Below, one piece after another: positions 35-12,613 of a stretch of DNA of 64,000 bases. The notes under the pieces were generated by a model. It was not told where the DNA came from and made no database searches. It worked only from the letters and a program-made list of their open reading frames with translations. Location of the stretch: IMG/VR virus record IMGVR_UViG_3300025924_000017, positions 96,001 through 160,000 of that record. One strand, given 5' to 3'. This stretch comes from a virus (Duplodnaviria > Caudoviricetes). Position numbers and translations under genes: made by a program. The stretch's first letter is position 1, and the number at the start of each line of letters is the position of its first letter.

Positions 35-123
35 CAGAGTGTCGGGTAGCTTGGCTGATCTCGCCCGGTTTGGGGCCGGGAGTCGAAAGACACACGTTGG
101 TTCGAATCCAACCACTCTGACCA
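35..123 (+). tRNA. tRNA-Pro(UGG), 15-nt variable arm
   Basis: CAGAGTG/CACTCTG acceptor, CCCGG-TT TGG GG-CCGGG anticodon arm, TTCGAAT T-loop, encoded CCA. Confidence 0.9.
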
Positions 124-131
124 TTTTTAAT

Positions 132-206
132 CAGGCTTTAGCTCAGCAGGAGAGCGCCCGCTCGGGAAGCGGGAGGACGCTGTGGCAGTGACAGCAAGCC
201 TGACCA
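132..206 (+). tRNA. tRNA-Pro(GGG), non-canonical T-loop
   Basis: CAGGCTT/AAGCCTG acceptor, TAGCTCAG D-arm, CCCGC-TC GGG AA-GCGGG, T-arm GCTGT-GGCAGTG-ACAGC, CCA. Confidence 0.85.
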
Positions 207-281
207 GTTTCGTGCGGTGTCTGAGCGCTACAAATATCGGGAGACAGAAAAGCGAGACTTCCCGAGCCGCACTTCGAATTC

Positions 282-363
282 GCCGGTTTGGCTCAGCAGC
301 GACAGCAGCAGTTTTGTAAACTGCCATTCCACATCGGGGGTGCGAGTCCCTCAACCGGCACCA
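282..363 (+). tRNA. tRNA-Thr(UGU)
   Basis: GCCGGTT/AACCGGC acceptor, GCAGT-TT TGT AA-ACTGC, T-loop TGCGAGT, CCA. Confidence 0.85.
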
Positions 364-370
364 TCATCAT

Positions 371-445
371 GCCCTCGAATAAGAGAAAGCGCTTTGCGTC
401 ATTGGTAGTGACGAGAGGAACGGGCAGGTCGTTCCGGGGGCACCA
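371..445 (+). tRNA. tRNA-Thr(GGU), degenerate D-arm
   Basis: GCCCTCG/CGGGGGC acceptor, CGTCA-TT GGT AG-TGACG, T-arm GAACG-GGCAGGT-CGTTC, CCA; D-arm poorly paired. Confidence 0.7.
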
Positions 446-452
446 ACAACAC

Positions 453-527
453 GCCGACTAAATTGAGATAGCGTAAGACCGGACTCGTAATCTGGTAGGG
501 GTGGCGCAAGTCCACCAGTCGGCACCA
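453..527 (+). tRNA. tRNA-Thr(CGU), degenerate D-arm
   Basis: GCCGACT/AGTCGGC acceptor, CCGGA-CT CGT AA-TCTGG, T-arm GGTGG-CGCAAGT-CCACC, CCA. Confidence 0.75.
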
Positions 528-542
528 AATCAAATCGAATAT

Positions 543-632
543 GCGCTGGTGACCCGAGTAGCGAAGGGCTGAGACTCTTAATCTCATGATCTAAAAAATC
601 CATCGCGGGTGCGAGTCCCGCCCAGCACACCA
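543..632 (+). tRNA. tRNA-Lys(CUU), long variable region
   Basis: TGAGA-CT CTT AA-TCTCA anticodon arm, C2.A71 mismatch, 18-nt variable region, T-loop TGCGAGT, CCA. Confidence 0.8.
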
Positions 633-637
633 ATTGA

Positions 638-731
638 GCGCCGGTGACCCGAGAAGCGAAGGGCCGGGACTTTTAATCCTGTTTGGTGTTCAACACCATC
701 GTCGTGGGTGCGAGTCCCACTCGGCACACCA
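638..731 (+). tRNA. tRNA-Lys(UUU), long variable arm
   Basis: CGGGA-CT TTT AA-TCCTG, variable hairpin TGGTG-TTCAA-CACCA, C2.A71 mismatch, T-loop TGCGAGT, CCA. Confidence 0.8.
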
Positions 732-741
732 GTTTCAGTTT

Positions 742-825
742 GGCCCTATGGCGTAATAGTAGGCGCGCTGGCTTCAGATACCAGTGTCTTTGGACGTGGG
801 GGTGCAAGTCCCTCTAGGGCTACCA
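742..825 (+). tRNA. tRNA-Leu(CAG)
   Basis: GGCCCTA/TAGGGCT acceptor, loop TT CAG AT, class II arm, T-loop TGCAAGT, CCA. Confidence 0.85.
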
Positions 826-830
826 AATTT

Positions 831-915
831 GCTCCCGTGGCGGAACGGTAGACGCGCTCCCCTTAAAGCGGAGTGACCTCGTGTCGTGGGAGTTCGATTC
901 TCTCCGGGAGTACCA
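831..915 (+). tRNA. tRNA-Leu(UAA)
   Basis: GCTCCCG/CGGGAGT acceptor, loop CT TAA AG, Leu-type D-arm, TTCGATT, CCA. Confidence 0.88.
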
Positions 916-924
916 GAAGAATTT

Positions 925-1011
925 GTCCGGCTGATCGGAATCAGTAGACGTGCTCGGCTCAAACCCGAGTGCCCTTGTGGCGTAGAGGTGCAAGTCCTCT
1001 GCCGGACACCA
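925..1011 (+). tRNA. tRNA-Leu(CAA)
   Basis: GTCCGGC/GCCGGAC acceptor, CTCGG-CT CAA AC-CCGAG, T-loop TGCAAGT, CCA. Confidence 0.88.
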
Positions 1012-1015
1012 GTTT

Positions 1016-1099
1016 GCTCTTGTGGCGTAAAGGTAGGCGCGTTGGTTCGAGAAGCCAATGGGTAAAACCGTGGGGGTTCAAGTCCCTCCAAGAGCACCA
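1016..1099 (+). tRNA. tRNA-Leu(GAG)
   Basis: GCTCTTG/CAAGAGC acceptor, loop TC GAG AA, TTCAAGT, CCA. Confidence 0.88.
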
Positions 1100-1101
1100 A
1101 G

Positions 1102-1210
1102 TTGAGTGATCGCAAGCGTTAGGACCCTGTGCTGCTCCACGATGCACTGACAAGGTCTCACGGCGATTGAGAGAGGGCATCTCACGGCGGGTCCGCTCCG
1201 CACCACTCAA
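1102..1210 (+). ncRNA. candidate structured RNA in tRNA array
   Basis: TTGAGTG/CACTCAA and GGACCC/GGGTCC stems enclosing 2-3 hairpins; no CCA, no T-loop consensus. Confidence 0.45.
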
Positions 1211-1219
1211 ACAAAACAT

Positions 1220-1295
1220 GCTGACGTAGGACCTGAGGCTGGGTCGCCTGATTGTGAGTCAGGAGTGAGTGGTTCGATTCCGCACGTCAGTACCA
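1220..1295 (+). tRNA. tRNA-His(GUG), no G-1, A73
   Basis: GCTGACG/CGTCAGT acceptor, CCTGA-TT GTG AG-TCAGG, TTCGATT, CCA; base at -1 is T. Confidence 0.85.
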
Positions 1296-1304
1296 ATTCA
1301 ATTC

Positions 1305-1377
1305 GGGGTGTCCGCGAGGTCCGGACTTGATCTTTGCAAGATCGAAGCGGTGGGTGCGAGACCCACACACTCCGCCA
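1305..1377 (+). tRNA. atypical tRNA-Ala(UGC)
   Basis: GGGGTGT/ACACTCC acceptor with G3:U70, TGATC-TT TGC AA-GATCG, T-loop TGCGAGA, G73, short odd D-arm, CCA. Confidence 0.7.
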
Positions 1378-1384
1378 AGTATAT

Positions 1385-1460
1385 GGGCCTGTAGCTCAGT
1401 TGGGAGAGCGCCTGATTTGCACTCAGGATGTCGGGGGTTCAAATCCTCTCAGGTCCACCA
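1385..1460 (+). tRNA. tRNA-Ala(UGC), canonical
   Basis: GGGCCTG/CAGGTCC with G3:U70, canonical D- and T-arms, loop TT TGC AC, CCA. Confidence 0.92.
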
Positions 1461-1466
1461 ACATAC

Positions 1467-1553
1467 GGATGCTGAACCCGGCGCGGGCTGGGACTCGCCT
1501 CGAAAGCGATGGGAGCCTCACGGCTTGGAGATCGAGCCTTCCGGCATCCGCCA
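1467..1553 (+). tRNA. tRNA-Ser(CGA)
   Basis: GGATGCT/GGCATCC acceptor, loop CT CGA AA, variable hairpin, T-loop ATCGAGC, CCA. Confidence 0.8.
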
Positions 1554-1569
1554 ATCAAATGCGAAGAAG

Positions 1570-1863
1570 ATGAAGAAGATCGGAAAGAGATATCTGGAGC
1601 GAGCGCAATACTACCGACGTCTCGCGCACGCTACGTGTCCGACCTTGGACTTCTCCGATGAGGCGCTGCGCCGCTGCTACGAATGGGAGAGCCACGGTGT
1701 GCGCTGTAGCGATCCAGACAACGGATACATGACAGGCAAGTCGCTCGTGAACCTGAATGTCGCAATGTGGAAGGAAGACATCGTTCGCGGAACGCTTTTT
1801 CTGTTCGAGTTGCGTGAGGACCCTGACATTCCAGAATGGGTCTTGAAGAATTTCGGAGAGTGA
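1570..1863 (+). CDS. hypothetical protein (97 aa) inside tRNA array
   Basis: Protein-like part of ORF 1327-1863 from ATG 1570 (MKKIGKRYLER...); the upstream part of that ORF overlaps tRNAs. Confidence 0.7.
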   Translation: MKKIGKRYLERAQYYRRLAHATCPTLDFSDEALRRCYEWESHGVRCSDPDNGYMTGKSLVNLNVAMWKEDIVRGTLFLFELREDPDIPEWVLKNFGE

Positions 1864-1946
1864 ACCGAGCAGGGATGCCGGGCGCGTTTGCTAAACGATG
1901 CGGAGGCCGAAAGGCTTTTTCGGATCAAGACCGACGCTCTCCTCCA
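1855..1946 (+). tRNA. tRNA-Ser(GCU)
   Basis: GGAGAGT/GCTCTCC acceptor, loop TT GCT AA, long variable arm, T-loop ATCAAGA, U73, CCA; overlaps last 9 nt of upstream CDS. Confidence 0.8.
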
Positions 1947-1951
1947 GTCAT

Positions 1952-2043
1952 GGATGCTTGGCCGAGTGGCTTAAGGCGGCGGATTTGAAATCCGCAGGAC
2001 CTCACGCGAGGTTCCGTCCGTTCAAATCGGACAGCATCCTCCA
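1952..2043 (+). tRNA. tRNA-Ser(UGA)
   Basis: GGATGCT/AGCATCC, GCGGA-TT TGA AA-TCCGC, long arm, TTCAAAT, U73, CCA. Confidence 0.9.
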
Positions 2044-2113
2044 ATCTAGGGCCTAGCGCAGCGCAACGTCGCGGGAAGGGTGAGAGGGTAGCGTCGCGGC
2101 TACCCGCGTAATT

Positions 2114-2205
2114 GGAGAGTGAACCGGACACGCGTGCCGGGCCTGCTTGGAAAGCAACGCGGACGGTGCAAGCCGTTTGGGGCGCAAGTCCTCCGCTCTC
2201 CGCCA
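2114..2205 (+). tRNA. tRNA-Ser(GGA)
   Basis: GGAGAGT/GCTCTCC, loop TT GGA AA (weak stem), long arm, T-loop CGCAAGT, CCA. Confidence 0.78.
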
Positions 2206-2211
2206 AATCGC

Positions 2212-2243
2212 TTGACACGATCCACGTCAGTGTGCCATAGAAT
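2212..2243 (+). promoter_or_regulatory. sigma70-type promoter
   Basis: TTGACA at 2212 with CATAGA/TAGAAT at about 2236-2243. Confidence 0.5.
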
Positions 2244-2286
2244 GCGACATCGCGCTTCTGCACCGGCGCGTCGGCCTAACGGCTAG

Positions 2287-2380
2287 GCCGGAGGGTTCGT
2301 CGAAGGGCGGAGAGGAGCAGGCTACGAGCCTGCGACCACATTGGTCTGAAAATCCGCCGCCCTGCGATCAACCCTCCGGC
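2287..2380 (+). ncRNA. candidate structured RNA (multibranch)
   Basis: 11-bp closing stem GCCGGAGGGTT/AACCCTCCGGC, further helices, two internal hairpins; non-coding gap after a promoter. Confidence 0.5.
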
Positions 2381-2398
2381 TATCAATTTTGGAAGTCG

Positions 2399-2611
2399 AT
2401 GTCACCTGAAGCTCTCACTCTGATCGCTAAGCTCCACGAAGCCCGCGACAAGCAAAACGCACCCCACGCGATCTACGCAACCGATAGGCCTGAGATGCTG
2501 GCGCTCGTTGCCGAACTCGTTGAACACGGTTATCTCGTCAAGCGTGTGCGTCGGGAAGTCGATCCTTTCGATTCCTACATGACAACTGACAAGAGCCTCC
2601 CAAACGCATGA
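2399..2611 (+). CDS. hypothetical protein
   Basis: 70-aa ORF, GGAAG SD, start/stop coupling to next gene. Confidence 0.65.
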   Translation: MSPEALTLIAKLHEARDKQNAPHAIYATDRPEMLALVAELVEHGYLVKRVRREVDPFDSYMTTDKSLPNA

Positions 2612-2805
2612 GGCGGCGCAAGTCTTTTCCAGAACTCGAAGCGCGCGAGCGCGCGATCCGTGACAGCGACCACGCGCGGATAGCTCGGGGTTTGGAGCCG
2701 ATCCGCTGCCCACGATGCGGAGAGAACGCTTCGCACTTCTTCCCACCCTGTTTCGGCGACCCCGGCTTTTGGACGTGCGTCGGTGTCATGGTACCAGCCA
2801 CATGA
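2608..2805 (+). CDS. small Cys-containing hypothetical protein (possible Zn ribbon)
   Basis: CPRCGE motif plus two further Cys; ATGA overlaps at both ends. Confidence 0.6.
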   Translation: MRRRKSFPELEARERAIRDSDHARIARGLEPIRCPRCGENASHFFPPCFGDPGFWTCVGVMVPAT

Positions 2806-3023
2806 CGTGCAGCACCGCCAGACGCTACCAATACCTGAACGTCATCACCGACACCGGCGAGCGCAAGGTCTTGCGTGTCTCCGACGCCACCATGCGCCGC
2901 ATCACCGAAGCCGCCCACAAGGCTAAGAACCCGACGATCTGGCAGCGGATCGTGCGGGCGTTTAAGCGCGTCTTCGCATCTGTCGCGGATCGTGTCACAG
3001 CAGGGTTGACAAAACGACGCTGA
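2802..3023 (+). CDS. hypothetical protein
   Basis: ATG 2802 overlaps the previous stop; basic 73-aa product. Confidence 0.55.
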   Translation: MTCSTARRYQYLNVITDTGERKVLRVSDATMRRITEAAHKAKNPTIWQRIVRAFKRVFASVADRVTAGLTKRR

Positions 3024-3034
3024 GCGGATATGCC
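3006..3034 (+). promoter_or_regulatory. sigma70-type promoter
   Basis: TTGACA-17-TATGCC upstream of the SD-led ATG 3063. Confidence 0.45.
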
Positions 3035-3062
3035 GGGTCTTCGCCATGTGAAGGACCCGACA

Positions 3063-4904
3063 ATGCTTGACGCCCAGACCCTCGACCTCTTCAAGGTCAT
3101 TGTTCTCGACGAGTTTGCTGTGCCGCCGGAAGGGCTGAGCGCAAAGCCGTATCTGGAAGACCTCCAGCAGGGCTTCGTCACCAATTTCATCCCGACGCCC
3201 CTTCAGAGGGCCGCACTCTGCAAGGCGTTCAAGCCGCTTCCGCTGGTGACGCTGTTTTCGGTCGCCGAGCGCCGGGCGCCCGACATCACTCCGATGTCGC
3301 TGATCATGACGCAGCTTCTCCACTACATCGAGGTCTACGGCCTCGACCAGCCGGGCTTGTTCAATCTCGAAGTCAAGCAGGGTAGCGTCGTGGTTGTCGC
3401 CAACGTTCGCGGCGTGACGGTCGAGGAACTTGGCGACATGGTCCGCGCCCTGATCTACGCGAACGCGCCGGTCCGCAAGATCGAGGACGTGATCGAACTG
3501 ATCAAGTTCCACAACATTCCTTATGACCTCGCACTCGTGAAGAACAACGAAGCGCGCATCCGCTTGTACCGGGACGGCGATCAGTTTGCGTCCGGAGACG
3601 ACGCTGTCCGCTACATCGTCTTCAAGACGACCGGCGACTCGCTCCTGATCAAGTCCCCGGAAGTCGTCGCAGCCGTGAAGTCCGGCGAGCGACAGGTTTC
3701 GTTGCACTTCCTGATGGCGCACGAGACGGTCTTGGCGCAGGTGTTCAATCGCCACAAGCGCATCATCATGGCGTTGAAGAACCGGCGCACGGCACAGGCG
3801 ATCAACCGCATTTCGCGCTTCTCGAAGACGAAGCACGTCCCGCTCCGTCCGGCGCTCAACAAGACTTTCATCGCCCGCGCGCTCGGCGATCTGCCGTTCG
3901 ACTACGAGGACGCGCTGGAGGTCATCTCCCTGCGCGACAAGTTCAAGTACCTGAACCTGCTCGAATGGCGCCGCTTGCAGAATACCGATGACGTGTTCAT
4001 CATCCGCAACGGCCGCGCGCATTTGGAGCCGGATCGTAAGGTCTACCCCACCAAAGACATCACGGCGCTCATTATGAGTGTTGCGGACTCGATTGAGGCT
4101 GATCTGCGACATCTGCAAGGCAAGTCGATCCTGCTCGATCCCAATGTCGATTATGGTCTGCCGACCTCCCAGAAGCAGATGCTCGGCAGCCTGCCGTTCG
4201 GCACCACGATCTCGGTCGGTAACGGGAACATCTCGTCCGGCATCTATTGGGAGAACCGTTGGGGCGCGACCGATCTCGATCTGGCAGCCATCGACGAGTG
4301 GGGCGAACGCACCGGCTGGGGCGAGTTGTCCGGATTCGACAATAACAATCCGATCCTCTTCTCCGGCGACATCACGTCGGCACCTGAAGGCGCCATGGAG
4401 TTCATGACCTCGGCGACGACGGATTGTGAGCGCGTCTACGGACTGCTGGTGAACATCTTCAACGGGGGTAACGAGGCCGAATGCGAACTGCTCGTCGGCT
4501 CCCAGTTCGAAGGCAAGAACGGTCAGACGCGTTCCGGGCGATCCGCGAAGTGGATCAAGTCGCCGGTGATCCGGGAGAAGGTGAAGCTCACCTCTCGCGA
4601 GACGATCCTCGGCTTCGTACGGAACGGGAAGTTCGTCGTGTTCGCCCCGCGCCTGTCGAACCGCCGTGTGTCCGGCGGCGAGATCACGCGCCGTTTGATC
4701 GCGAAGGGCATGGCGCCGGTCTGGACGATCAGCAAGCTGCTCGCCGTTGCGGGAATCAAGTACGACACGACACCCGTTGACGGTGTTGTCTACGATTACG
4801 ATCTCTCGTACGCGTCGTTTTGTGTTGACAAAATGGAGCGCATGTTGTTCAATCCTCAGCAGGTTACGCCGCAAAAGACGTTCCTTACAGAAACAGCGGC
4901 CTAA
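3063..4904 (+). CDS. large conserved phage protein with helical N-terminus and TerD-like C-terminal domain
   Basis: AAGGA SD before ATG 3063; C-terminal motifs DLDLAA and FSGDITSAPEGAMEF resemble TerD-like domains (recalled, not searched). Confidence 0.6.
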   Translation: MLDAQTLDLFKVIVLDEFAVPPEGLSAKPYLEDLQQGFVTNFIPTPLQRAALCKAFKPLPLVTLFSVAERRAPDITPMSLIMTQLLHYIEVYGLDQPGLFNLEVKQGSVVVVANVRGVTVEELGDMVRALIYANAPVRKIEDVIELIKFHNIPYDLALVKNNEARIRLYRDGDQFASGDDAVRYIVFKTTGDSLLIKSPEVVAAVKSGERQVSLHFLMAHETVLAQVFNRHKRIIMALKNRRTAQAINRISRFSKTKHVPLRPALNKTFIARALGDLPFDYEDALEVISLRDKFKYLNLLEWRRLQNTDDVFIIRNGRAHLEPDRKVYPTKDITALIMSVADSIEADLRHLQGKSILLDPNVDYGLPTSQKQMLGSLPFGTTISVGNGNISSGIYWENRWGATDLDLAAIDEWGERTGWGELSGFDNNNPILFSGDITSAPEGAMEFMTSATTDCERVYGLLVNIFNGGNEAECELLVGSQFEGKNGQTRSGRSAKWIKSPVIREKVKLTSRETILGFVRNGKFVVFAPRLSNRRVSGGEITRRLIAKGMAPVWTISKLLAVAGIKYDTTPVDGVVYDYDLSYASFCVDKMERMLFNPQQVTPQKTFLTETAA

Positions 4905-5007
4905 AAAGCCGCTCCTAAAATACGTCTCGCGGTTTTCGATTTTGTTGCAAAGGGTGTTCCTTAAAAACCCTTCTATGGCAAACACACCCCGCAACGCTCT
5001 CTGCGAG

Positions 5008-5040
5008 AGGCCATCCGAAAGGATGGCCTTTTGCATTTTG
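5008..5040 (+). terminator. intrinsic terminator
   Basis: AGGCCATCC-GAAA-GGATGGCCT followed by TTTGCATTTT. Confidence 0.8.
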
Positions 5041-5044
5041 TTTC

Positions 5045-5073
5045 TTGACACGACTGCCGTGATATGAGACAAC
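5045..5073 (+). promoter_or_regulatory. promoter of leader/tRNA array 2
   Basis: TTGACA 5045-5050, 17 nt, then GACAAC (GAGACAAC is 6/8 to the Caulobacter-type GCTANAWC); predicted +1 at about 5080-5081. Confidence 0.6.
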
Positions 5074-5080
5074 CTTCTCC

Positions 5081-5179
5081 ATGAGCAAGACCTTTACCAA
5101 CGTGCAGCAAGTCGTCCGCCGGAATCGCTATATTCCGGGCGGGGCTTTCGCGCGTGTGGAGAAGGATCACGGGTTCTAA
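5081..5179 (+). CDS. putative leaderless attenuator leader peptide MSKTFTNVQQVVRRNRYIPGGAFARVEKDHGF
   Basis: ATG at predicted TSS, no SD; the ORF spans helices 1:2 and 2:3; codons 7-18 are all read by downstream tRNAs. Confidence 0.75.
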   Translation: MSKTFTNVQQVVRRNRYIPGGAFARVEKDHGF

Positions 5180-5247
5180 ACCCAAAAGCTCTCCAAAGTT
5201 CTGCGAAAGGCCCGCCCGGTAAGCTCCGAGCGGGCCTTTTGCTTTTT
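5115..5247 (+). promoter_or_regulatory. transcription attenuator (1:2, 2:3 antiterminator, 3:4 terminator)
   Basis: 5115-5125 pairs with 5132-5143; 5135-5151 pairs with 5203-5219 (16 bp, one G.G) plus 5157-5162 with 5190-5195; terminator 5206-5239 with U-tract to 5247. Confidence 0.8.
5206..5247 (+). terminator. intrinsic terminator upstream of tRNA array 2
   Basis: AAAGGCCCGC-C-CGG TAAGCT CCG-A-GCGGGCCTTT then TGCTTTTT. Confidence 0.85.
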
Positions 5248-5256
5248 GCCTTTCAC

Positions 5257-5342
5257 GCGGATGCGAACGAGAGGCGAGCGATTGACGGTCTGTAAAACCG
5301 TTGCCTATGGCTGAATGGGTTCAATTCCCATCATCCGCACCA
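5257..5342 (+). tRNA. tRNA-Tyr(GUA)
   Basis: GCGGATG/CATCCGC, ACGGT-CT GTA AA-ACCGT, class II arm, TTCAATT, CCA. Confidence 0.88.
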
Positions 5343-5378
5343 AGGCAAAAACGAGAAGGTACGCAAGGAGAAGAATTT

Positions 5379-5455
5379 GCTTCGGTAGCTCAGTTGGTAA
5401 GAGCGCTGGCTTGAAATCCCAGAGGTCGATGCGTCGAGTGCATCCCGGAGCACCA
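5379..5455 (+). tRNA. tRNA-Phe(GAA)
   Basis: GCTTCGG/CCGGAGC, loop TT GAA AT, T-arm GATGC-GTCGAGT-GCATC, CCA. Confidence 0.85.
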
Positions 5456-5460
5456 TACAC

Positions 5461-5536
5461 AGTCCGTTAGCTCATTCAGGAGAGCGCTGGTGTCACATAC
5501 CAGAGGCGCACGGGGCAGAGCCGTGACGGACTACCA
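5461..5536 (+). tRNA. tRNA-Val(CAC)
   Basis: AGTCCGT/ACGGACT, CTGGT-GT CAC AT-ACCAG, T-loop GGCAGAG, CCA. Confidence 0.82.
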
Positions 5537-5540
5537 GCTT

Positions 5541-5616
5541 CCACCCGAGGCTGACTAGTGAGGCGGGCACCTGATTAGTGCCGTCAAGGTGAGTGCGATC
5601 CTCACCGGGTGGTCCA
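5541..5616 (+). tRNA. atypical tRNA with GAU anticodon (Ile)
   Basis: CCACCCG/CGGGTGG, GGCAC-CT GAT TA-GTGCC, U37, U73, T-loop TGCGATC, CCA. Confidence 0.7.
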
Positions 5617-5624
5617 GTTTTCAG

Positions 5625-5654
5625 ATCAGCGATGGAGATTCGTCGCTGGTTTTT
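5625..5654 (+). terminator. terminator-like hairpin inside array 2
   Basis: 10-bp stem ATCAGCGATG/CGTCGCTGGT (two G:U), then TTTT. Confidence 0.45.
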
Positions 5655-5730
5655 AGTCCGATAGCTCATTCAGGAGAGCGCCGCTGTGACATGGCGGAGG
5701 TGCGCGGGGCAGAACCGCGTCGGACTACCA
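5655..5730 (+). tRNA. tRNA-Val(GAC)
   Basis: AGTCCGA/TCGGACT, CCGCT-GT GAC AT-GGCGG, T-loop GGCAGAA, CCA. Confidence 0.82.
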
Positions 5731-5736
5731 AATCAT

Positions 5737-5813
5737 TCTCCGTTAGCTGGTCGGTCTGGCCGCTGGGCTCTGAACCCGGAAAGAAGAACGTTCGAATCGT
5801 TCGCGGAGAGCCA
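5737..5813 (+). tRNA. tRNA-Gln(CUG)
   Basis: TCTCCGT/GCGGAGA (U1:A72), loop CT CTG AA, TTCGAAT, CCA. Confidence 0.85.
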
Positions 5814-5818
5814 AACAT

Positions 5819-5894
5819 TGCCCGTTAATTGCTAGGTGCGGTCGCCGGGTTTTGACCCCGGTAGGAAAAGGTTCGAATCCTTTGCGGGCATCCA
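5819..5894 (+). tRNA. tRNA-Gln(UUG)
   Basis: TGCCCGT/GCGGGCA, CCGGG-TT TTG AC-CCCGG, TTCGAAT, U73, CCA; weak D-arm. Confidence 0.8.
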
Positions 5895-5900
5895 GAACAT

Positions 5901-5985
5901 TCCCTTCTGGCGGAACGAGTAGACGCGCTGCACTGTTAATGCAGTATCGAAAGATGTGCAGGGGCGGAGCCTGCGGAGGGAGCCA
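5901..5985 (+). tRNA. tRNA-Asn(GUU), long variable arm
   Basis: TCCCTTC/GGAGGGA, CTGCA-CT GTT AA-TGCAG, ATC-GAAA-GAT arm, T-loop GGCGGAG, CCA. Confidence 0.8.
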
Positions 5986-5994
5986 ATCAAATTT

Positions 5995-6070
5995 TGGTGT
6001 GTAGCTCAGTCGGCAGAGCGGCGGATTGTTAATCCGAAGGTCGCAGGATCGTACCCTGCCACGCCAGCCA
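5995..6070 (+). tRNA. tRNA-Asn(GUU)
   Basis: TGGTGTG/CACGCCA, loop TT GTT AA, T-loop ATCGTAC, CCA. Confidence 0.82.
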
Positions 6071-6076
6071 AATTAT

Positions 6077-6158
6077 AGTCGCGAAGTGCTGAATGGAACG
6101 GAGGCAACGCACTACGAATGCGTAAACCCTGTGGGTTCGAGTCCCACCGCGACTACCA
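6077..6158 (+). tRNA. tRNA-Arg(ACG)
   Basis: AGTCGCG/CGCGACT, ACGCA-CT ACG AA-TGCGT, TTCGAGT, CCA; enlarged D region. Confidence 0.82.
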
Positions 6159-6165
6159 GTTTTGA

Positions 6166-6241
6166 CGTGCCGTCGCCTAAAGGTAAGGCCCTTCGCTCAT
6201 AACGACAGTGTATGTGAGTTCGATTCTCACCGGCACCACCA
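6166..6241 (+). tRNA. tRNA with CAU anticodon (Met/fMet/Ile2 unresolved)
   Basis: C1.C72 mismatch, loop CT CAT AA, only 3-bp anticodon stem, TTCGATT, CCA. Confidence 0.7.
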
Positions 6242-6244
6242 AAT

Positions 6245-6327
6245 GGCCCCGTAGCTCAGCGGACAGAGCGCCGGTCTTCTAAGCCGGGAAATCAACGTCG
6301 GGGGTTCGACTCCCTCCGGGGCTTCCA
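6245..6327 (+). tRNA. tRNA-Arg(UCU)
   Basis: GGCCCCG/CGGGGCT, loop CT TCT AA, 12-nt variable region, TTCGACT, CCA. Confidence 0.88.
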
Positions 6328-6333
6328 GATCAC

Positions 6334-6408
6334 AGCCGCGTAGCTCAACGGAAAGAGCGCCAGTTTCCGAAACTGAGGATCGGTGTTCGATTCACCGCGC
6401 GGCTACCA
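6334..6408 (+). tRNA. tRNA-Arg(CCG)
   Basis: AGCCGCG/CGCGGCT, CAGT-TT CCG AA-ACTG, TTCGATT, CCA. Confidence 0.88.
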
Positions 6409-7373: not shown

Positions 7374-8180
7374 GTGGATCAGCCTAACGAGTTTTTCGAG
7401 CAAGCATCTCCGCCACCCCGTCTCACCAAATCGCAAGCAAGAGCAGCGCGCCGGGCCGAAAAGGCTTCTACGGGTGGTTCCGGCGCGCCTCTTACAGCCA
7501 AGACCGACAATCAGCGCCGGTATATCGACCGCCTCAAGCGCGGCCAGAGTTTGTTCGCTATCGGACCAGCGGGAACCGGCAAAACCTACCTCCCTGCGCG
7601 GATCGCGGCGCGCAAGCTCCTCGACAAGCAACTCGACAAGTTCATCATCGTGCGCGCCACCGTGGAACCCAACAAGCGCCACGCGCTCGGTTTCAAACCC
7701 GGCAAGCAGGACGACAAGCTGGCGCCGTGGATGATCCCGGTGCTGGACGGCCTGCGCGCGGAGATGAGCGGCGTCGTCCTCGACAAGCTCAAGAACGAGA
7801 AGCGGATCGAGTTCGCGCCTTTCGAAAGTATGCGAGGCCGCACGTTCAACAACGCGATCCTTCTGATCGATGAGGCCCAGAATCTCACGACCGCCGACCT
7901 CAAACTGGTTTTGACGCGTATCGGCGAGGACTGTCAGGTGATCGTCACCGGGGATACCGAACAGACCGATATCCCGGATTCCGGCCTTGCGCGCGTCGTC
8001 GCGATGACGCGCCGTCACCAGATCGAGATGCCTGTGGTCGTCTTTGACGAGGATGATGTGGTGCGCAGCGCCATGACCAAGGCATGGGTCAAGGCATTTG
8101 CCGCAGAATTTGGCAGTACTGCCGCATTTCTTGACGACCCTCCGGCGTTCCTGCAAAATGGCCGCTTAGTTCCCCAGTAA
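7374..8180 (+). CDS. phoH: PhoH-family ATPase
   Basis: GPAGTGKT Walker A, MRGRTF, LIDEAQN, TRIG and VTGDTEQTD motifs. Confidence 0.95.
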   Translation: MDQPNEFFEQASPPPRLTKSQARAARRAEKASTGGSGAPLTAKTDNQRRYIDRLKRGQSLFAIGPAGTGKTYLPARIAARKLLDKQLDKFIIVRATVEPNKRHALGFKPGKQDDKLAPWMIPVLDGLRAEMSGVVLDKLKNEKRIEFAPFESMRGRTFNNAILLIDEAQNLTTADLKLVLTRIGEDCQVIVTGDTEQTDIPDSGLARVVAMTRRHQIEMPVVVFDEDDVVRSAMTKAWVKAFAAEFGSTAAFLDDPPAFLQNGRLVPQ

Positions 8181-8198
8181 AAGCGACCTCCCACAGCC

Positions 8199-8726
8199 AT
8201 GACCTTTGCCTTTGTGGTCGAGACCGGCAACGCCGATCCCGATGCAAACTCCTACGCAGCCGTTGACTTCGCGGACGATTATATCTCCACGAACGCCTTT
8301 GTTGCCGACCTCTGGGCGACCCAGACGACGGATGAAAAGGAAAAATACCTCGTCCGCGCGTCCAAATACATCGACCGGACGATCCAGTGGAACGGCACCC
8401 GCGTGGACGACGAGTCGGGCCTGCGCTGGCCGCGCTCCGGCGTGTACGACGCGGATAGCTTCGAGATTCCCGATGACGTGATCCCGGAAGTCTTGCAGGA
8501 AGCCGTCTGCGAAGTGGCGTCACTCCTCGCCACCGGCACCGACTGGACACAGCCGCAAGACGGCCGAGGGATCAAGGACCTCAAGGCCGATGTCGTCGAG
8601 ATTTCGTTCAACTCGACGCAGGCGATGCGCGCGTCGCTCCCTGACTACGTCATCAACATGCTGTCCGATCTGGGTTCTGTCCGGGGAGGCACGCGCCCGT
8701 CGTTCAAGAAGATCACGCGGGCTTAA
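8199..8726 (+). CDS. head-tail adaptor (DnaT-like domain family)
   Basis: ANSYAAVDFADDY and LRWPR motifs; first gene of the neck block. Confidence 0.75.
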   Translation: MTFAFVVETGNADPDANSYAAVDFADDYISTNAFVADLWATQTTDEKEKYLVRASKYIDRTIQWNGTRVDDESGLRWPRSGVYDADSFEIPDDVIPEVLQEAVCEVASLLATGTDWTQPQDGRGIKDLKADVVEISFNSTQAMRASLPDYVINMLSDLGSVRGGTRPSFKKITRA

Positions 8727-8729
8727 GCC

Positions 8730-9113
8730 ATGAGCTTGCGCAATCTTGTCCGGCAGCAGGTCGCCAACGGCTTCAAAGCGTTCGGCGACATCCCGCGCCC
8801 GGCCGATTATTACCAGATGACCGGCGAGGTCACCCGCGATCTTGTCGCCGGTACGTCCGTCCCGGTGACAAACCACTACCCCCTCAAGGGCGTCATCTTC
8901 GCGAAGTTCGAGGAGAAGGAAAACGATAAGGACGTTTCACGCCTCACCGACGAGAAGGCGATCTTCCCGGCGCTCTATCTGCCGATCACGCCCAGCACCT
9001 CCGACACCATCGTCGATGAAAATGGCGTCGTTTGGGAGGTTGTGGACCGCCTGAGCGATCCGGCGTCCGCCGTTGTGGTCCTCCATATGCGGACCTCGCG
9101 CACCACGACCTGA
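8730..9113 (+). CDS. putative head-closure protein
   Basis: Size and position between adaptor and tail-completion genes. Confidence 0.6.
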   Translation: MSLRNLVRQQVANGFKAFGDIPRPADYYQMTGEVTRDLVAGTSVPVTNHYPLKGVIFAKFEEKENDKDVSRLTDEKAIFPALYLPITPSTSDTIVDENGVVWEVVDRLSDPASAVVVLHMRTSRTTT

Positions 9114-9114
9114 T

Positions 9115-9594
9115 ATGGCGAAATTCACAGTCACCCGGCAAGGAAACTTGCAGGCCGCGCTCACGAACTTCTTCCAAAAGGTGGAAGACGCGTATGTCCG
9201 GAACGAAGATAACCTTCTGATCCAGTTGAACGAGCGCATTCTGGCGCTCACGCCGGTCTGGGAAGGCGATGCGATCATCAACTGGCGCTGGTCTACGCGG
9301 GCGCCGCTGACGGGCCACATCGATCCGGTCGAGACCCCGGAAGACCCCGGACACACGAACGAAATGGCGCTCGGCGAGGAACCACGCCGCGCCGCCAATG
9401 AAACACGGCCGAGACAGTCGCTCATGGCGGCACTGCGCGCCAAGGAACCTCAGGATATTTTTCTCACCAACAACTCTGACCACATCGTCGATCTCGAATA
9501 CGGACTTCTGCCGACGCGCGAGCGCTCTCGTGTCGATGGCGCGCAGGGCATCGTTCGGCTGGCGATCAAGGAAGTCATGGGAAGCCTTCACTAA
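9115..9594 (+). CDS. putative neck/tail-completion protein
   Basis: TPVWEG...NW and LEYG motifs typical of HK97 gp10-like proteins; synteny. Confidence 0.65.
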   Translation: MAKFTVTRQGNLQAALTNFFQKVEDAYVRNEDNLLIQLNERILALTPVWEGDAIINWRWSTRAPLTGHIDPVETPEDPGHTNEMALGEEPRRAANETRPRQSLMAALRAKEPQDIFLTNNSDHIVDLEYGLLPTRERSRVDGAQGIVRLAIKEVMGSLH

Positions 9595-10037
9595 TGCTTG
9601 AAACGGATATGCTCCGCCAAGTCCTGTACCAGCAGGCGATCACGGCGGTCCAAAACAATGGGAACTTTCCCTGCAAGATCGGCAACGAGCCATTCAAGAA
9701 GCCCTCGGACGGCTCGATCTACGGCGAGTTCTGGTTCAAGACCGGCAAGACGACCCAGATGGAGCTTGGCTCCCGGCGCGGCTTCGAATGTACGGCGGGG
9801 GTTGCGCAATTCGCGCTCTTCTCGCCGGAGAAGGATGGCGAGGGTGCCGTCCAACGGTTGGCCGACAATCTGCGGAAAGTGTTCAATCGCAAACAATACA
9901 CGGTGCCGCCGGACGGCTACCTGAACATGGACCCTTGGTCCGTTCAGACTGTCCCGGGCACTCGAAACGGCTACATCGTCGTCATCGTGGACGGAAGCTT
10001 CGACTTCTACCACCGCGATCCTTCGGCGACGCCTTAA
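9594..10037 (+). CDS. putative tail terminator
   Basis: Synteny before the tail tube gene; GVAQFALF..K..GEG pattern. Confidence 0.7.
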   Translation: MLETDMLRQVLYQQAITAVQNNGNFPCKIGNEPFKKPSDGSIYGEFWFKTGKTTQMELGSRRGFECTAGVAQFALFSPEKDGEGAVQRLADNLRKVFNRKQYTVPPDGYLNMDPWSVQTVPGTRNGYIVVIVDGSFDFYHRDPSATP

Positions 10038-10765: not shown

Positions 10766-12613
10766 ATGGTCGTTTTGTTTGCCGACTCCAATCGCGCGCG
10801 GATTCGTTACATCAAGGAATCCGACAGCAATTGGGGCTCGACGCCCAATTCCGGCGTTACGCGCGAGCTTCGGTACACCGGCTCGACGCTCAACGTCCAA
10901 AAAGATACCACCACCTCGCAGGAAATCCGCTCGGACCGCATGGTCTCGGACATCGTCGAGACCGCAATGCGGTCCTCGGGCGATCTCAGCGTGGAGTTCT
11001 CCGCCGGTTCGCATGACGACTTCATGGAAGGCTTCATGTACGGCGCGTGGACGCGCCCGATGGGCTTTGACTTCGTCAAGGGCCTGACCGTTTCGTGGGG
11101 TGCGACAAACAAGCTGTATCTGTCCGGCGCCGACTGGACCACCTACTTCACCGTGGGTCACCGCGTGAAGACCTCCGGGTTCGTCAACCCGGCGAACAAC
11201 TCTTATTTCGAGATCAGCGCGCTGACCTTCAACTCCGGCGCCAACCGGACCGAAATCACGATGACGGCCTCAACCGCCGTGATTGAATCCGGCACCGCCT
11301 ACACGCAGGTCATCGACGCGAACGACGTGTTCGTCTTGAACAACACGCACGTTCGTTCCGGCACCGCAGGCGCCTCGACGTTCGACTCGAACAGCAACAA
11401 CGCGTTCGCGTCGGCCATCGCCGCCGGTCAGCTTAAGGTCGGCCAGAAAATCTTCGTCGAAGGTCTTGGCTACGAGCGCGGCTCCGTTGCGTTCGCTGAC
11501 TACGGCACCGAGACGATTGCTGCGGGCGCGACCGTCACCGTCACCGATGGCACCAACTCCGCAACCTTCCAGTTCGGCGGTTCGCTGATCCCCGGCAATA
11601 TCGCCGTCAGCATCGGCGCGGCCAACACCGACGCGGCGACCAACCTCGCAGCAGCGATCAACGCGCTTCGCCCGAGCGGCAAGCTCAACGTCGCAGCGAC
11701 CGTCGCCACGGCAACGGTCAACCTGAAGAACGTCAATCAGGTCGGCGGTTCGATCTCCAAGGCTGGCGACACCAACGCGAACATGACGGTCACGAACTAC
11801 AGCGGTGGCCTCACCAGCGTTCGTGGCGTGTTCACCGTGACCTCCGCAACGGACGACGTCATTGGCGTCAGCCCGGCTCCGGCAACGCTCAACAACTCGA
11901 CCGTCGCGGTCTCGATCAAGGGCTCGATGCTGCGCAATCCGTCGCAAGCAAGCGACATCGTTCCGCACTCCTTCTCGTTCGAAGAAGAGTTCGAGGACGT
12001 GGGTCTCTTCCGCATCGCGGACGGCCAGCGCATCTCGACGATGGCGTACAGCATCTCCTCCGGCAACATCCTGACCGGCTCGTTCGGCCTGATGGGTCGC
12101 GAGATCAAGAAGCTGCTCGCAACGAAGCTGGGCGACACCGGTTCCTACACCGTGCTCGACACCACGGCGACCGTCGTCACCAACGCGACCGTCAACGTCG
12201 GTACGATCTCGATGAACGGCACCGCGCTTTCGACGGCCCTCAAGACCATCACGGTCAACGGCAACAACAACCTGCGCGAACAGCAGGCGGTCGGCAACAA
12301 GTTCCCGGTCGGTATCGGCGCAGGCCGCATCGAGTTCACCGGCAGCGTCGAGGCGTACTTCGCCAACGACGATATGTGGGATCAGTTCATCAACCACCTC
12401 ACCGTTTCGCTCGGCTGGTCGGTTGAGGACACGGACGGCAACCACTACGAGTTCACGGTTCCGGCGTGCGTGTTCACCACCGACACCGAGAACCCGGCGG
12501 GTGGCAACCAAGATATCATGGAGACCATGGACTGGTCTGCGAAGCGCGATCCGGTCACGGAATGCTCGTTCCAGATCGACCGTTTCTCCAGCGTTCAGCC
12601 CATCGCGGCTTAA
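10766..12613 (+). CDS. major tail tube protein
   Basis: ES.WG.TP and SQEIRSDR N-terminus, lambda gpV-like C-terminal motifs, central insert; AAGGA SD; precedes chaperone and TMP. Confidence 0.88.
   Translation: MVVLFADSNRARIRYIKESDSNWGSTPNSGVTRELRYTGSTLNVQKDTTTSQEIRSDRMVSDIVETAMRSSGDLSVEFSAGSHDDFMEGFMYGAWTRPMGFDFVKGLTVSWGATNKLYLSGADWTTYFTVGHRVKTSGFVNPANNSYFEISALTFNSGANRTEITMTASTAVIESGTAYTQVIDANDVFVLNNTHVRSGTAGASTFDSNSNNAFASAIAAGQLKVGQKIFVEGLGYERGSVAFADYGTETIAAGATVTVTDGTNSATFQFGGSLIPGNIAVSIGAANTDAATNLAAAINALRPSGKLNVAATVATATVNLKNVNQVGGSISKAGDTNANMTVTNYSGGLTSVRGVFTVTSATDDVIGVSPAPATLNNSTVAVSIKGSMLRNPSQASDIVPHSFSFEEEFEDVGLFRIADGQRISTMAYSISSGNILTGSFGLMGREIKKLLATKLGDTGSYTVLDTTATVVTNATVNVGTISMNGTALSTALKTITVNGNNNLREQQAVGNKFPVGIGAGRIEFTGSVEAYFANDDMWDQFINHLTVSLGWSVEDTDGNHYEFTVPACVFTTDTENPAGGNQDIMETMDWSAKRDPVTECSFQIDRFSSVQPIAA

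Follow-up and report, generated by a model that had tools for sequence, protein, structure and literature searches.

Covarying D-loop and T-loop variants suggest alternative elbows in about half of a phage's near-complete tRNA set

A 225,611-bp IMG/VR virus record, judged to be a complete phage genome (59% G+C), carries an island of transfer RNA (tRNA) genes that extends into the stretch analyzed here (bases 96,001 to 160,000 of the record; 64,000 nucleotides, hereafter the window). Positions 35 to 6408 of the window hold 31 cloverleaves, all on the plus strand and all ending in an encoded CCA, and in 18 of them the T-loop lacks the usual TTC. We propose that about half of the approximately 43 tRNAs in this near-complete decoding set are working tRNAs built on alternative, structurally equivalent elbows, in a phage whose host is probably alphaproteobacterial. 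From the patterns of sequence variation described below, we put the probability of this reading at roughly 0.6; that the variants are working tRNAs with compensated elbows appears likely.

Two classes of variant and their partner bases

The contacts between G18 and pseudouridine 55 (Psi55) and between T54 and A58 are taught as near-invariant parts of tRNA, and they include the targets of TruB and TrmA/TrmFO. In the window, 13 T-loops are TTC and 18 are not (seven TGC, five GGC, two CGC, three ATC, and one GTC), a tally made by an earlier sequence-only reading that our own scanner reproduced exactly, motif by motif. That reading had described a single, systematic loss of TTC. The 18 variants are real, but they fall into two classes. 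Fourteen (TGC, GGC, and CGC) have G in place of U55, and 12 of these carry A18 G19 in the D-loop. The remaining four (ATC and GTC) keep U55 together with G18 G19 and are altered only at position 54, to A or G, so that the 54-58 combinations are A-A, A-U, and G-A. Within the G55 class, the five GGC loops (GGCAGTG, GGCAGGT, GGCAGAG, GGCAGAA, and GGCGGAG) all follow the pattern GGCRG, with G54 and G58 standing in for U54 and A58. C56 and G19 are kept in the window tRNAs.

The match between the two loops can be followed in a related phage (G002), whose tail tube protein is 62% identical and whose island has the same amino-acid order. Among 22 shared island positions, nine differ at base 55, and base 18 switches as well in all nine; the other 13 are unchanged at both. 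G55 is found only in the window phage at five positions (Thr-UGU, Leu-CAA, both Val, and Ile) and only in the relative at four (Leu-GAG, His, Tyr, and Phe). Within the window, the D and T arms of tRNA-Leu(GAG) and tRNA-Leu(CAG) are alike save at positions 18 and 55. The tRNA-Thr(GGU) genes of the two phages are identical in the T arm, the D loop, and the anticodon loop, and their acceptor, D, and anticodon stems differ by compensated changes. Convergent remodelling, as the sequence-only reading had it, is only part of the picture: elbow state does vary in both directions among syntenic tRNAs, but other variants, Thr-GGU and Val for example, were inherited as such. For most genes, the nearest-neighbor identities of single tRNAs (0.6 to 0.88) are too weak to tell inheritance from switching in place.

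The same partner bases recur when 414 distinct tRNAs ending in CCA are pooled across this phage, three published phages, and 24 IMG/VR loci. U55 occurs with G18 G19 rather than A18 G19 at 287:1, and G55 occurs with A18 G19 rather than G18 G19 at 71:1, a two-by-two table that overstates independence, most loci having been picked through an A18-type D arm and being mutually related. Position 18 was set by rule (an alpha region of 1 to 4 nt and at least one base between 19 and 21), which left 18 of the 414 ambiguous. At the other contact, U54 is accompanied by A58 in 342 of 342 tRNAs and G54 G55 by G58 in 29 of 29, while A54 U55 occurs with U58 in 12 and with A58 in seven. We also collected loci, unfiltered, by a D-arm 20-mer alone and read them at fixed offsets. 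Across the resulting 24 viral (IMG/VR) and eight bacterial contigs, the A18-type 20-mer was always accompanied by G55 (32/32), and G58 was present in all 25 loci with G54; stems were intact, and CCA was encoded in 30 of the 32. This test and the comparison with the syntenic relative are better tests than the pooled table. Mis-registered T-loops as a source of the odd motifs were rejected on the basis of the 7-nt loops, 5-bp stems, fixed CCA offsets, and the 32 of 32 independent loci.

Detection, constraint, and decoding

Our scanner looked for an acceptor stem of 7 bp, a discriminator, CCA, and a T stem of 5 bp closing a loop of 7 nt. It returned 31 units scoring at least 30, compared with 0.13 per shuffle of the region; 25 units scored at least 45, a value reached by none in 100 shuffles and by none on either strand of the window's other 57 kb. 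Acceptor stems are fully paired in 28 units (6/7 in Lys 543, Lys 638, and Met 6166) and T stems in 27 (4/5 in His 1220, Ser 1467, Ser 1855, and Ser 2114). The earlier description of intact loops on paired T stems with encoded CCA therefore stands for the 7-nt loops and CCA of all 31 and needs amending for the T stems of four. The three odd Ser units score just 30 to 37 in our parser, and their support comes from homologues in three published phages. All 31 have the cloverleaf architecture of the Rfam tRNA model RF00005 (7-bp acceptor stem, 5-bp anticodon stem with 7-nt loop, and 5-bp T stem with 7-nt loop), whereas the canonical elbow (G18 G19 with U54 U55 C56...A58) fails in the 18 that lack U54 or U55. 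ARAGORN recovered 21 of the 31, and nine of the 10 that it missed are non-TTC. RF00005 recovered 13 at its gathering threshold (29 bits). With laxer filters, 17 reached at least 29 bits, and 10 went unreported at E ≤ 10, including the well-folded Val pair. Seven units were recovered by neither program.

The variants bear the marks of constraint. An ungapped alignment of 36 G55 tRNAs has 99% of its stem cells paired, a figure that is partly built in by a scanner favoring paired stems, which does not apply to the conserved loops. Twenty of 22 pairs have changed on both sides, and compensated cells number 233 compared with 67.5 in shuffles, none of 500 shuffles reaching the observed value. G19-C56 is present in 35 of the 36. 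A covariance model (R1) made from G55 tRNAs of other sources only recognized both Val tRNAs (about 83 bits) and tRNA-Pro(GGG) (69.7 bits) in the window; ARAGORN had missed all three, and Rfam had missed the Val pair. Identity elements, judged for the variants against Escherichia coli sets from the literature, were kept where checked (G3-U70 in Ala; C1-G72 and A73 in Pro; G1-C72 and C2-G71 in Thr; A73 in Leu and Val; G73 in Asn and Asp). Anticodon loops are 7 nt and normal, save for C33 in tRNA-Pro(GGG). Under simple wobble rules, the phage's tRNAs account for about 94% of codon occurrences across 91 long open reading frames (ORFs), and for 41% of occurrences the phage decoders are exclusively non-TTC. 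Val, Thr, Lys, Ile, and Phe are served by variant tRNAs only.

These results bear on two alternatives. The variants could be decayed or inactive pseudogenes, with odd T-loops reflecting mutational damage in redundant copies, as might be supposed from the absence of a near-universal motif in 18 of 31, the many units missed by ARAGORN or given low or no Rfam scores, and the aberrant D arm of tRNA-Ala 1305. Decay of this kind would not be expected to produce matched covariation at 18/55 and 54/58 and compensated stems, to leave orthologues preserved both in a diverged phage and in arrays of bacteria, or to spare CCA, anticodon loops, identity elements, and the sole tRNAs for five amino acids, and we consider it most improbable. 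On this point, the sequence-only reading, which had set decay aside, was borne out by D-loop matching, compensated stems, conservation elsewhere, and the place of the variants as the sole phage-encoded decoders of 41% of codon occurrences. It is also very improbable that these are tRNA-shaped RNAs with a non-decoding job, serving as decoys for nucleases or toxins or as processing signals in the island transcript. Elbows unlike those of the host would suit such a role, but the near-normal anticodon loops, the kept identity elements, and anticodons that complete a non-redundant set would not, and a decoy for a UUC-reading nuclease would be expected to keep UUC rather than lose it.

A proxy host provides a further contrast. 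In the complete chromosome of Bradyrhizobium sp. McL0615, all 49 dispersed tRNAs have TTC with G18 G19, and a single 28-gene array of CCA-encoding tRNAs (Table 1) includes GGC, ATC, GTC, and CTC loops, with GGCAG in its tRNA-Val(GAC) and tRNA-Cys(GCA). Near-identical arrays are present in B. lablabi and B. jicamae. Frequent occurrence of the same T-loops in host tRNAs, which the sequence-only reading had named as evidence against itself, was thus not seen in this one proxy. Four Bradyrhizobium genomes also contain the D-arm 20-mer, as do metagenome-assembled genomes (MAGs) of Chloroflexales (two), Terracidiphilus, and Clostridia. Wherever the scan found tRNA genes around the bacterial 20-mer, they formed an array of CCA-encoding genes, and the Bradyrhizobium, Chloroflexales, and Terracidiphilus arrays contain Val or Ala tRNAs with the same A18 D arm and a GGCAGAG loop. 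GGC loops, described earlier as rare, are so among housekeeping tRNAs, but GGCRG is a recurrent, fixed motif in mobile tRNA arrays. Taken together, the co-switching at 18 and 55, the compensated stems, and the proxy-host contrast indicate elbows that are constrained and not decaying.

Variant tRNAs recur outside the window phage in phages as well as in bacterial arrays. The published phages Cp1R7A-A1, RcXuper, and MD18 contain unannotated non-TTC tRNAs (Table 1), among them several tRNA-Ser with ATCRAGA and a tRNA-Pro(UGG) with GGCGGAA and A18; a Pro tRNA of Mesorhizobium phage Cp1R7A-A1 has this GGCGGAA loop. The Chloroflexales and Terracidiphilus MAG arrays (L059, L064, and L062) consist mostly of G55 tRNAs, and in L059, most of the 30 tRNA genes have TGC or GGC T-loops.

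A candidate elbow and possible reasons for it

In the first class, U55 is replaced by G and, in 12 of 14 tRNAs, G18, the D-loop base that stacks into the T-loop, by A. We propose that the motif YGCRA with an intercalating A would amount to the T-loop/receptor design of flavin mononucleotide (FMN) and cobalamin riboswitches, set inside a tRNA elbow. In the GGCRG subclass, the intraloop pair U54-A58 would become G54-G58, as in the ribosomal RNA (rRNA) loop GGAAG. In the second class, G18-U55 is retained, with just the 54-58 pair altered. Because G19-C56, which forms the elbow's flat outer face, is present throughout, the L-shape should be preserved, along with the surface on which the ribosome, RNase P, and other readers of the elbow dock.

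Parts of this design have precedents. Relative to canonical tRNA as modeled by RF00005, the window tRNAs share the cloverleaf, the 7-nt anticodon loop, the T arm of 5 bp and 7 nt, G19-C56, G53-C61, and CCA; as in canonical phage tRNA islands, they are grouped by amino acid. They differ from the canonical elbow (G18-Psi55, G19-C56, and T54-A58) in the 14 tRNAs with G55, mostly with A18, in the five among them with G54/G58, and in the four with A54 or G54 and U55. T-loops of FMN and cobalamin riboswitches follow YGNRA (UGNRA, 88.7%; CGNRA, 10.9%), with an adenosine (99.96% A) that intercalates between the fourth and fifth loop positions and bonds to G2 at its sugar edge, and the T-loop GGAAG is known from rRNA (Batey-laboratory preprint, 10.1101/2022.12.26.521914). 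TGCGA, TGCAA, and CGCAA, found in nine window tRNAs, fit YGNRA; the five GGCRG loops do not, and their G1...G5 pattern matches that of GGAAG. As the riboswitch module would predict, the expected intercalating base (between tRNA positions 57 and 58) is A instead of G; the differences are the setting, a tRNA elbow with C56 paired to G19, and a geometry that we infer from sequence. T-loops with A54-A58 are known in eukaryotic initiator tRNA and cytosolic tRNA-Ala (PMC7566577). The ATCRA Ser loops resemble them in keeping U55 and G18 G19, whereas they belong to bacterial-type phage tRNAs, in which such loops occur with other identities (Ser, Asn, and Gly) and in some cases with A54/U58.

Dense CCA-encoding tRNA genes on mobile DNA are also known from long tRNA arrays spread by horizontal transfer (L-arrays), such as the trn operon of Anabaena 7120, in which 23 of 26 tRNAs were charged in vivo (PMC8421152). 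On the plasmid pCC7120delta, one of the 24 array genes is A18/G55 and nearly all others are canonical. The charged status of that single tRNA is not stated, and the charging data were set aside as giving no support either way. The text of the Anabaena paper (PMC8421152) does not mention elbow variants, and two reviews on T-loops and noncanonical tRNAs (PMC7912444 and PMC7609411) do not mention G54, G55, A18, or phage tRNAs. Our searches returned literature on anticodon-loop escape and on T-loop biology and no description of A18/G55 or G54/G58 tRNAs. The window contributes a large, near-complete set with both classes of variant, the G54/G58 subclass, a C18/G55 case, and the syntenic co-switch.

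In tRNAs of the G55 class, the UUC motif needed by T-loop tRNases such as CbCash is absent. CbCash is a Schlafen associated with CRISPR; it cuts 5' of U55 and is defeated by a single mutation of U54 or U55, and the authors of that work leave open whether phage tRNAs are cleaved (PMC13462974). CdiA-CT(E479) cleaves the T-loop between T and Psi (PMC9086364). Since U55 is absent from the G55 class and U54 also from its GGC and CGC members, Psi55 is impossible in the former and 5-methyluridine 54 in the latter. With T-loop tRNases published, escape from them is plausible, and so is independence from host modification. The selective reason would most likely be resistance to T-loop-directed attack or independence from host TruB and TrmA, in a setting of mobile tRNA sets whose elbow type flips often between related phages. 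We give the nuclease-escape motive roughly one chance in three. That phage and array sets maintain a second elbow (A18-G55, either with G54-G58 or lacking it) that is proof against nucleases and independent of modification, the flips being the trace of an arms race at the corner of the tRNA, is a possible but rather doubtful extension. Phage tRNAs that escape tRNA-targeting defenses in mycobacteriophage (PMC10264068) and in T5 (tRNA-Lys, -Thr, and -Asn against the PARIS nuclease AriB; PMC12409363) likewise depart systematically from host tRNAs at the site that the nuclease recognizes. There, the anticodon loop or stem is altered, whereas here the change lies in the T-loop/D-loop elbow. The papers on PARIS AriB and OLD do not mention the T-loop and were set aside as having no bearing on the elbow.

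A phage that disables host tRNAs through their UUC T-loops while sparing its own variants would also need a near-complete set with encoded CCA, as found here. Such self/host discrimination is nevertheless scarcely probable: a Schlafen (AlbA_2) domain was not found in the phage genome, Pfam and PHROG gave no match for the island ORFs, and the 21 phage tRNAs with UUC would be vulnerable too. Neutral exchange deserves more weight, although we regard it as unlikely. It holds that isosteric elbows (G18/U55 and A18/G55; U54-A58, G54-G58, and A54-A58) replace one another by drift, with no adaptive benefit, because accessory tRNAs of phages and mobile arrays are less constrained by modification enzymes and other readers of the elbow. 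It would accommodate the two-way differences from the related phage, the presence of G55 in nearly every amino-acid family, and the coexistence of canonical and variant tRNAs with the same anticodon (Asp GUC, Ala UGC, Asn GUU, and Met CAU). Each switch, however, needs two coordinated changes, and more in the GGC subclass, which counts against neutral drift; the same few motifs return rather than a spread of loop sequences; and frequencies of 0 of 49 in housekeeping tRNAs and 15 to 50% in phage and array sets call for some difference between the settings.

Several points weigh against the proposed reading, in addition to the selection of pooled loci, the ambiguous positions, and the scanner's preference for paired stems given above. 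Two G55 tRNAs stand outside the A18 pattern. One is tRNA-Ala 1305, with its aberrant D arm, and the other is tRNA-Ser(GGA), whose D loop (GACACGCGTG; U55 homologues, GACAGGCGTG) was read as C18 G19. The three-dimensional equivalence is a proposal drawn from sequence motifs. The five-to-four split of differences from the related phage fits neutral exchange as well as an arms race. Finally, with UUC kept by 13 of the 31 window tRNAs (21 in the genome), any escape from nucleases would be partial.

The island, its phage, and implications

The window edge truncates the island, which starts 2.85 kb upstream, at genome position 93,149 (window position -2851). Three further tRNAs and a transfer-messenger RNA (tmRNA) lie at 163 to 166 kb of the genome. 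The whole phage thus has about 43 tRNAs covering 20 of 20 amino acids, 22 of them non-TTC and 21 with UUC, including three further GGC loops outside the window. The island is followed by genes for PhoH, a DnaT-like protein, a tail tube protein, and a tape measure protein. Distant blastn matches, limited to single tRNAs, were nearest to phages of Mesorhizobium, Rhodobacter, Phaeobacter, and Sinorhizobium, and megablast against phage records found no match. The tmRNA is of the alphaproteobacterial two-piece type (RF01849, 102.8 bits; ARAGORN tag VANDNEPEALRFAA), and its neighbors are a tRNA-Cys and a pair of CAU tRNAs, of which one carries the T-loop GGCGGAA. The tRNA-His has A73 and no G-1, the form found in part of the Alphaproteobacteria. 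The phage probably infects an alphaproteobacterium.

Between tRNA-Ser(GGA) and the first ORF lies a strongly structured noncoding stretch with a long three-way hairpin (-73 kcal/mol; z = -5.0 relative to shuffles) and no match in Rfam. An ORF of 624 amino acids in mid-island belongs to a widespread family of phage hypothetical proteins; its C-terminal part gave a weak TerD-like lead, and, like the other island ORFs, it had no match in Pfam or PHROG. An IMG/VR relative of this ORF was rejected as an island relative, tRNAs being absent near its locus. CCA-adding and Pth domains, like Schlafen, were not found in the phage genome.

Some of the tRNAs are unusual outside the elbow. The mismatch in tRNA-Met (Table 1) is the mark of bacterial initiator tRNA. 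In tRNA-Pro(GGG), the anticodon loop is UCGGGAA, with C33 replacing the near-universal U33, and the same loop occurs in RcXuper and MD18. tRNA-Ala 1305 is one of a group of 73-nt tRNAs in which the D arm is shortened and re-wired and positions 8 and 9 are CC, the others being Arg tRNAs of RcXuper and MD18. Long or class-II-like variable arms are present on tRNAs that normally lack them (both Lys, Asn 5901, Thr[UGU], Pro[UGG], and Arg[UCU]). Lys and/or Asn tRNAs with long arms are also found in Cp1R7A-A1, Rhodobacter phage RcXuper, the related phage G002, and the Bradyrhizobium arrays. The PARIS nuclease AriB targets the Lys(UUU), Thr(UGU), and Asn(GUU) tRNAs (PMC12409363); the overlap of these identities with the long-armed tRNAs may be a coincidence.

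Table 1. tRNA genes of the island and other features. Positions refer to the window unless a genome, chromosome, or locus is named; programs named in the last column recovered the unit unless marked as missed.
Feature	Position	Strand	T-loop	Positions 18 and 19	Other features	Programs and scores
tRNA-Pro(UGG)	35-123	+	TTCGAAT	G18 G19	15-nt variable region; syntenic copy in G002	ARAGORN
tRNA-Pro(GGG)	132-206	+	GGCAGTG (G54 G55 G58)	A18 G19		Rfam with laxer filters, 43.5 bits; R1, 69.7 bits; ARAGORN missed
tRNA-Thr(UGU)	282-363	+	TGCGAGT (G55)	A18 G19	11-nt variable region; G002 orthologue TTC/GG	ARAGORN, Rfam
tRNA-Thr(GGU)	371-445	+	GGCAGGT	A18 G19		ARAGORN and Rfam missed
tRNA-Thr(CGU)	453-527	+	CGCAAGT (C54 G55)	A18 G19		Rfam with laxer filters, 35.9 bits
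tRNA-Lys(CUU)	543-632	+	TGCGAGT	A18 G19	18-nt variable arm	ARAGORN
tRNA-Lys(UUU)	638-731	+	TGCGAGT	A18 G19	22-nt variable arm	ARAGORN
tRNA-Leu(CAG)	742-825	+	TGCAAGT	A18 G19	87% identity to G002 Leu(UAG), same elbow	ARAGORN, Rfam
tRNA-Leu(UAA)	831-915	+	TTCGATT (canonical)	G18 G19		ARAGORN, Rfam
tRNA-Leu(CAA)	925-1011	+	TGCAAGT	A18 G19	G002 orthologue TTC/GG	ARAGORN
tRNA-Leu(GAG)	1016-1099	+	TTCAAGT (canonical)	G18 G19	G002 orthologue TGC/AG	ARAGORN, Rfam
tRNA-His(GUG)	1220-1295	+	TTCGATT	G18 G19	no G-1; A73	ARAGORN
tRNA-Ala(UGC)	1305-1377	+	TGCGAGA (G55)		aberrant short D arm; G3-U70 kept	ARAGORN; R1, 34.8 bits
tRNA-Ala(UGC)	1385-1460	+	TTCAAAT (canonical)	G18 G19		ARAGORN; Rfam, 67.5 bits
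tRNA-Ser(CGA)	1467-1553	+	ATCGAGC (A54 U55 A58)	GG kept	homologous Ser tRNAs with ATCRAGA in three phages
tRNA-Ser(GCU)	1855-1946	+	ATCAAGA (A54 U55 A58)	GG kept	homologues in three phages
tRNA-Ser(UGA)	1952-2043	+	TTCAAAT (canonical)			ARAGORN, Rfam
tRNA-Ser(GGA)	2114-2205	+	CGCAAGT (G55)	C18 G19	84% to Mesorhizobium phage Cp1R7A-A1
tRNA-Tyr(GUA)	5257-5342	+	TTCAATT (canonical)		G002 orthologue TGC/AG	Rfam
tRNA-Phe(GAA)	5379-5455	+	GTCGAGT (G54 U55 A58)	GG kept		ARAGORN, Rfam
tRNA-Val(CAC)	5461-5536	+	GGCAGAG	A18 G19		R1, 83.4 bits; ARAGORN and Rfam missed
tRNA-Ile(GAU)	5541-5616	+	TGCGATC	A18 G19		own parser only, score 56
tRNA-Val(GAC)	5655-5730	+	GGCAGAA	A18 G19	88% identity to Val(GAC) of Bradyrhizobium arrays	R1, 83.7 bits; ARAGORN and Rfam missed
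tRNA-Gln(CUG)	5737-5813	+	TTCGAAT (canonical)			ARAGORN
tRNA-Gln(UUG)	5819-5894	+	TTCGAAT (canonical)			ARAGORN, Rfam
tRNA-Asn(GUU)	5901-5985	+	GGCGGAG	A18 G19	class-II-like 13-nt variable arm	ARAGORN
tRNA-Asn(GUU)	5995-6070	+	ATCGTAC (A54 U55 U58)	GG kept		ARAGORN; Rfam, 60.4 bits
tRNA-Arg(ACG)	6077-6158	+	TTCGAGT (canonical)			ARAGORN
tRNA-Met(CAU)	6166-6241	+	TTCGATT (canonical)		C1-A72 mismatch	ARAGORN, Rfam
tRNA-Arg(UCU)	6245-6327	+	TTCGACT (canonical)		12-nt variable region	ARAGORN, Rfam
tRNA-Arg(CCG)	6334-6408	+	TTCGATT (canonical)			ARAGORN, Rfam
Structured noncoding stretch	2255-2398	+
ORF of 624 amino acids	3030-4904	+
tmRNA	genome 163804-164201
Anticodon loop UCGGGAA, RcXuper	L030:11124-11198
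Anticodon loop UCGGGAA, MD18	L031:10062-10136
73-nt tRNA-Arg, RcXuper	L030:7662-7734, 9255-9327
73-nt tRNA-Arg, MD18	L031:5822-5894, 8191-8263
Unannotated non-TTC tRNAs	L029:1575-1649, 8003-8094, 8520-8611
Unannotated non-TTC tRNAs	L030:9029-9114, 10842-10931
Unannotated non-TTC tRNAs	L031:8002-8093, 8101-8187, 8713-8799, 9811-9897
28-gene tRNA array, Bradyrhizobium sp. McL0615	chromosome 5,941,000-5,947,000

Standard tRNA finders overlook many phage tRNAs, as shown by the 10 of 31 missed here and by several unannotated genes in published phage genomes. If the proposed reading is right, half of an entire decoding set can rely on different elbow solutions, with partner bases that switch together, and these tRNAs would provide natural test cases for what the tRNA elbow really needs. 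If the A18-G55 elbow does serve nuclease escape, it would be invisible to UUC-reading Cash/Schlafen and CdiA-CT(E479)-type tRNases, and the fight between phage and host would take place at the elbow and not at the anticodon. The set also makes it directly testable whether phage tRNAs are shielded from immune nucleases that cut T-loops, enzymes described only in 2026.

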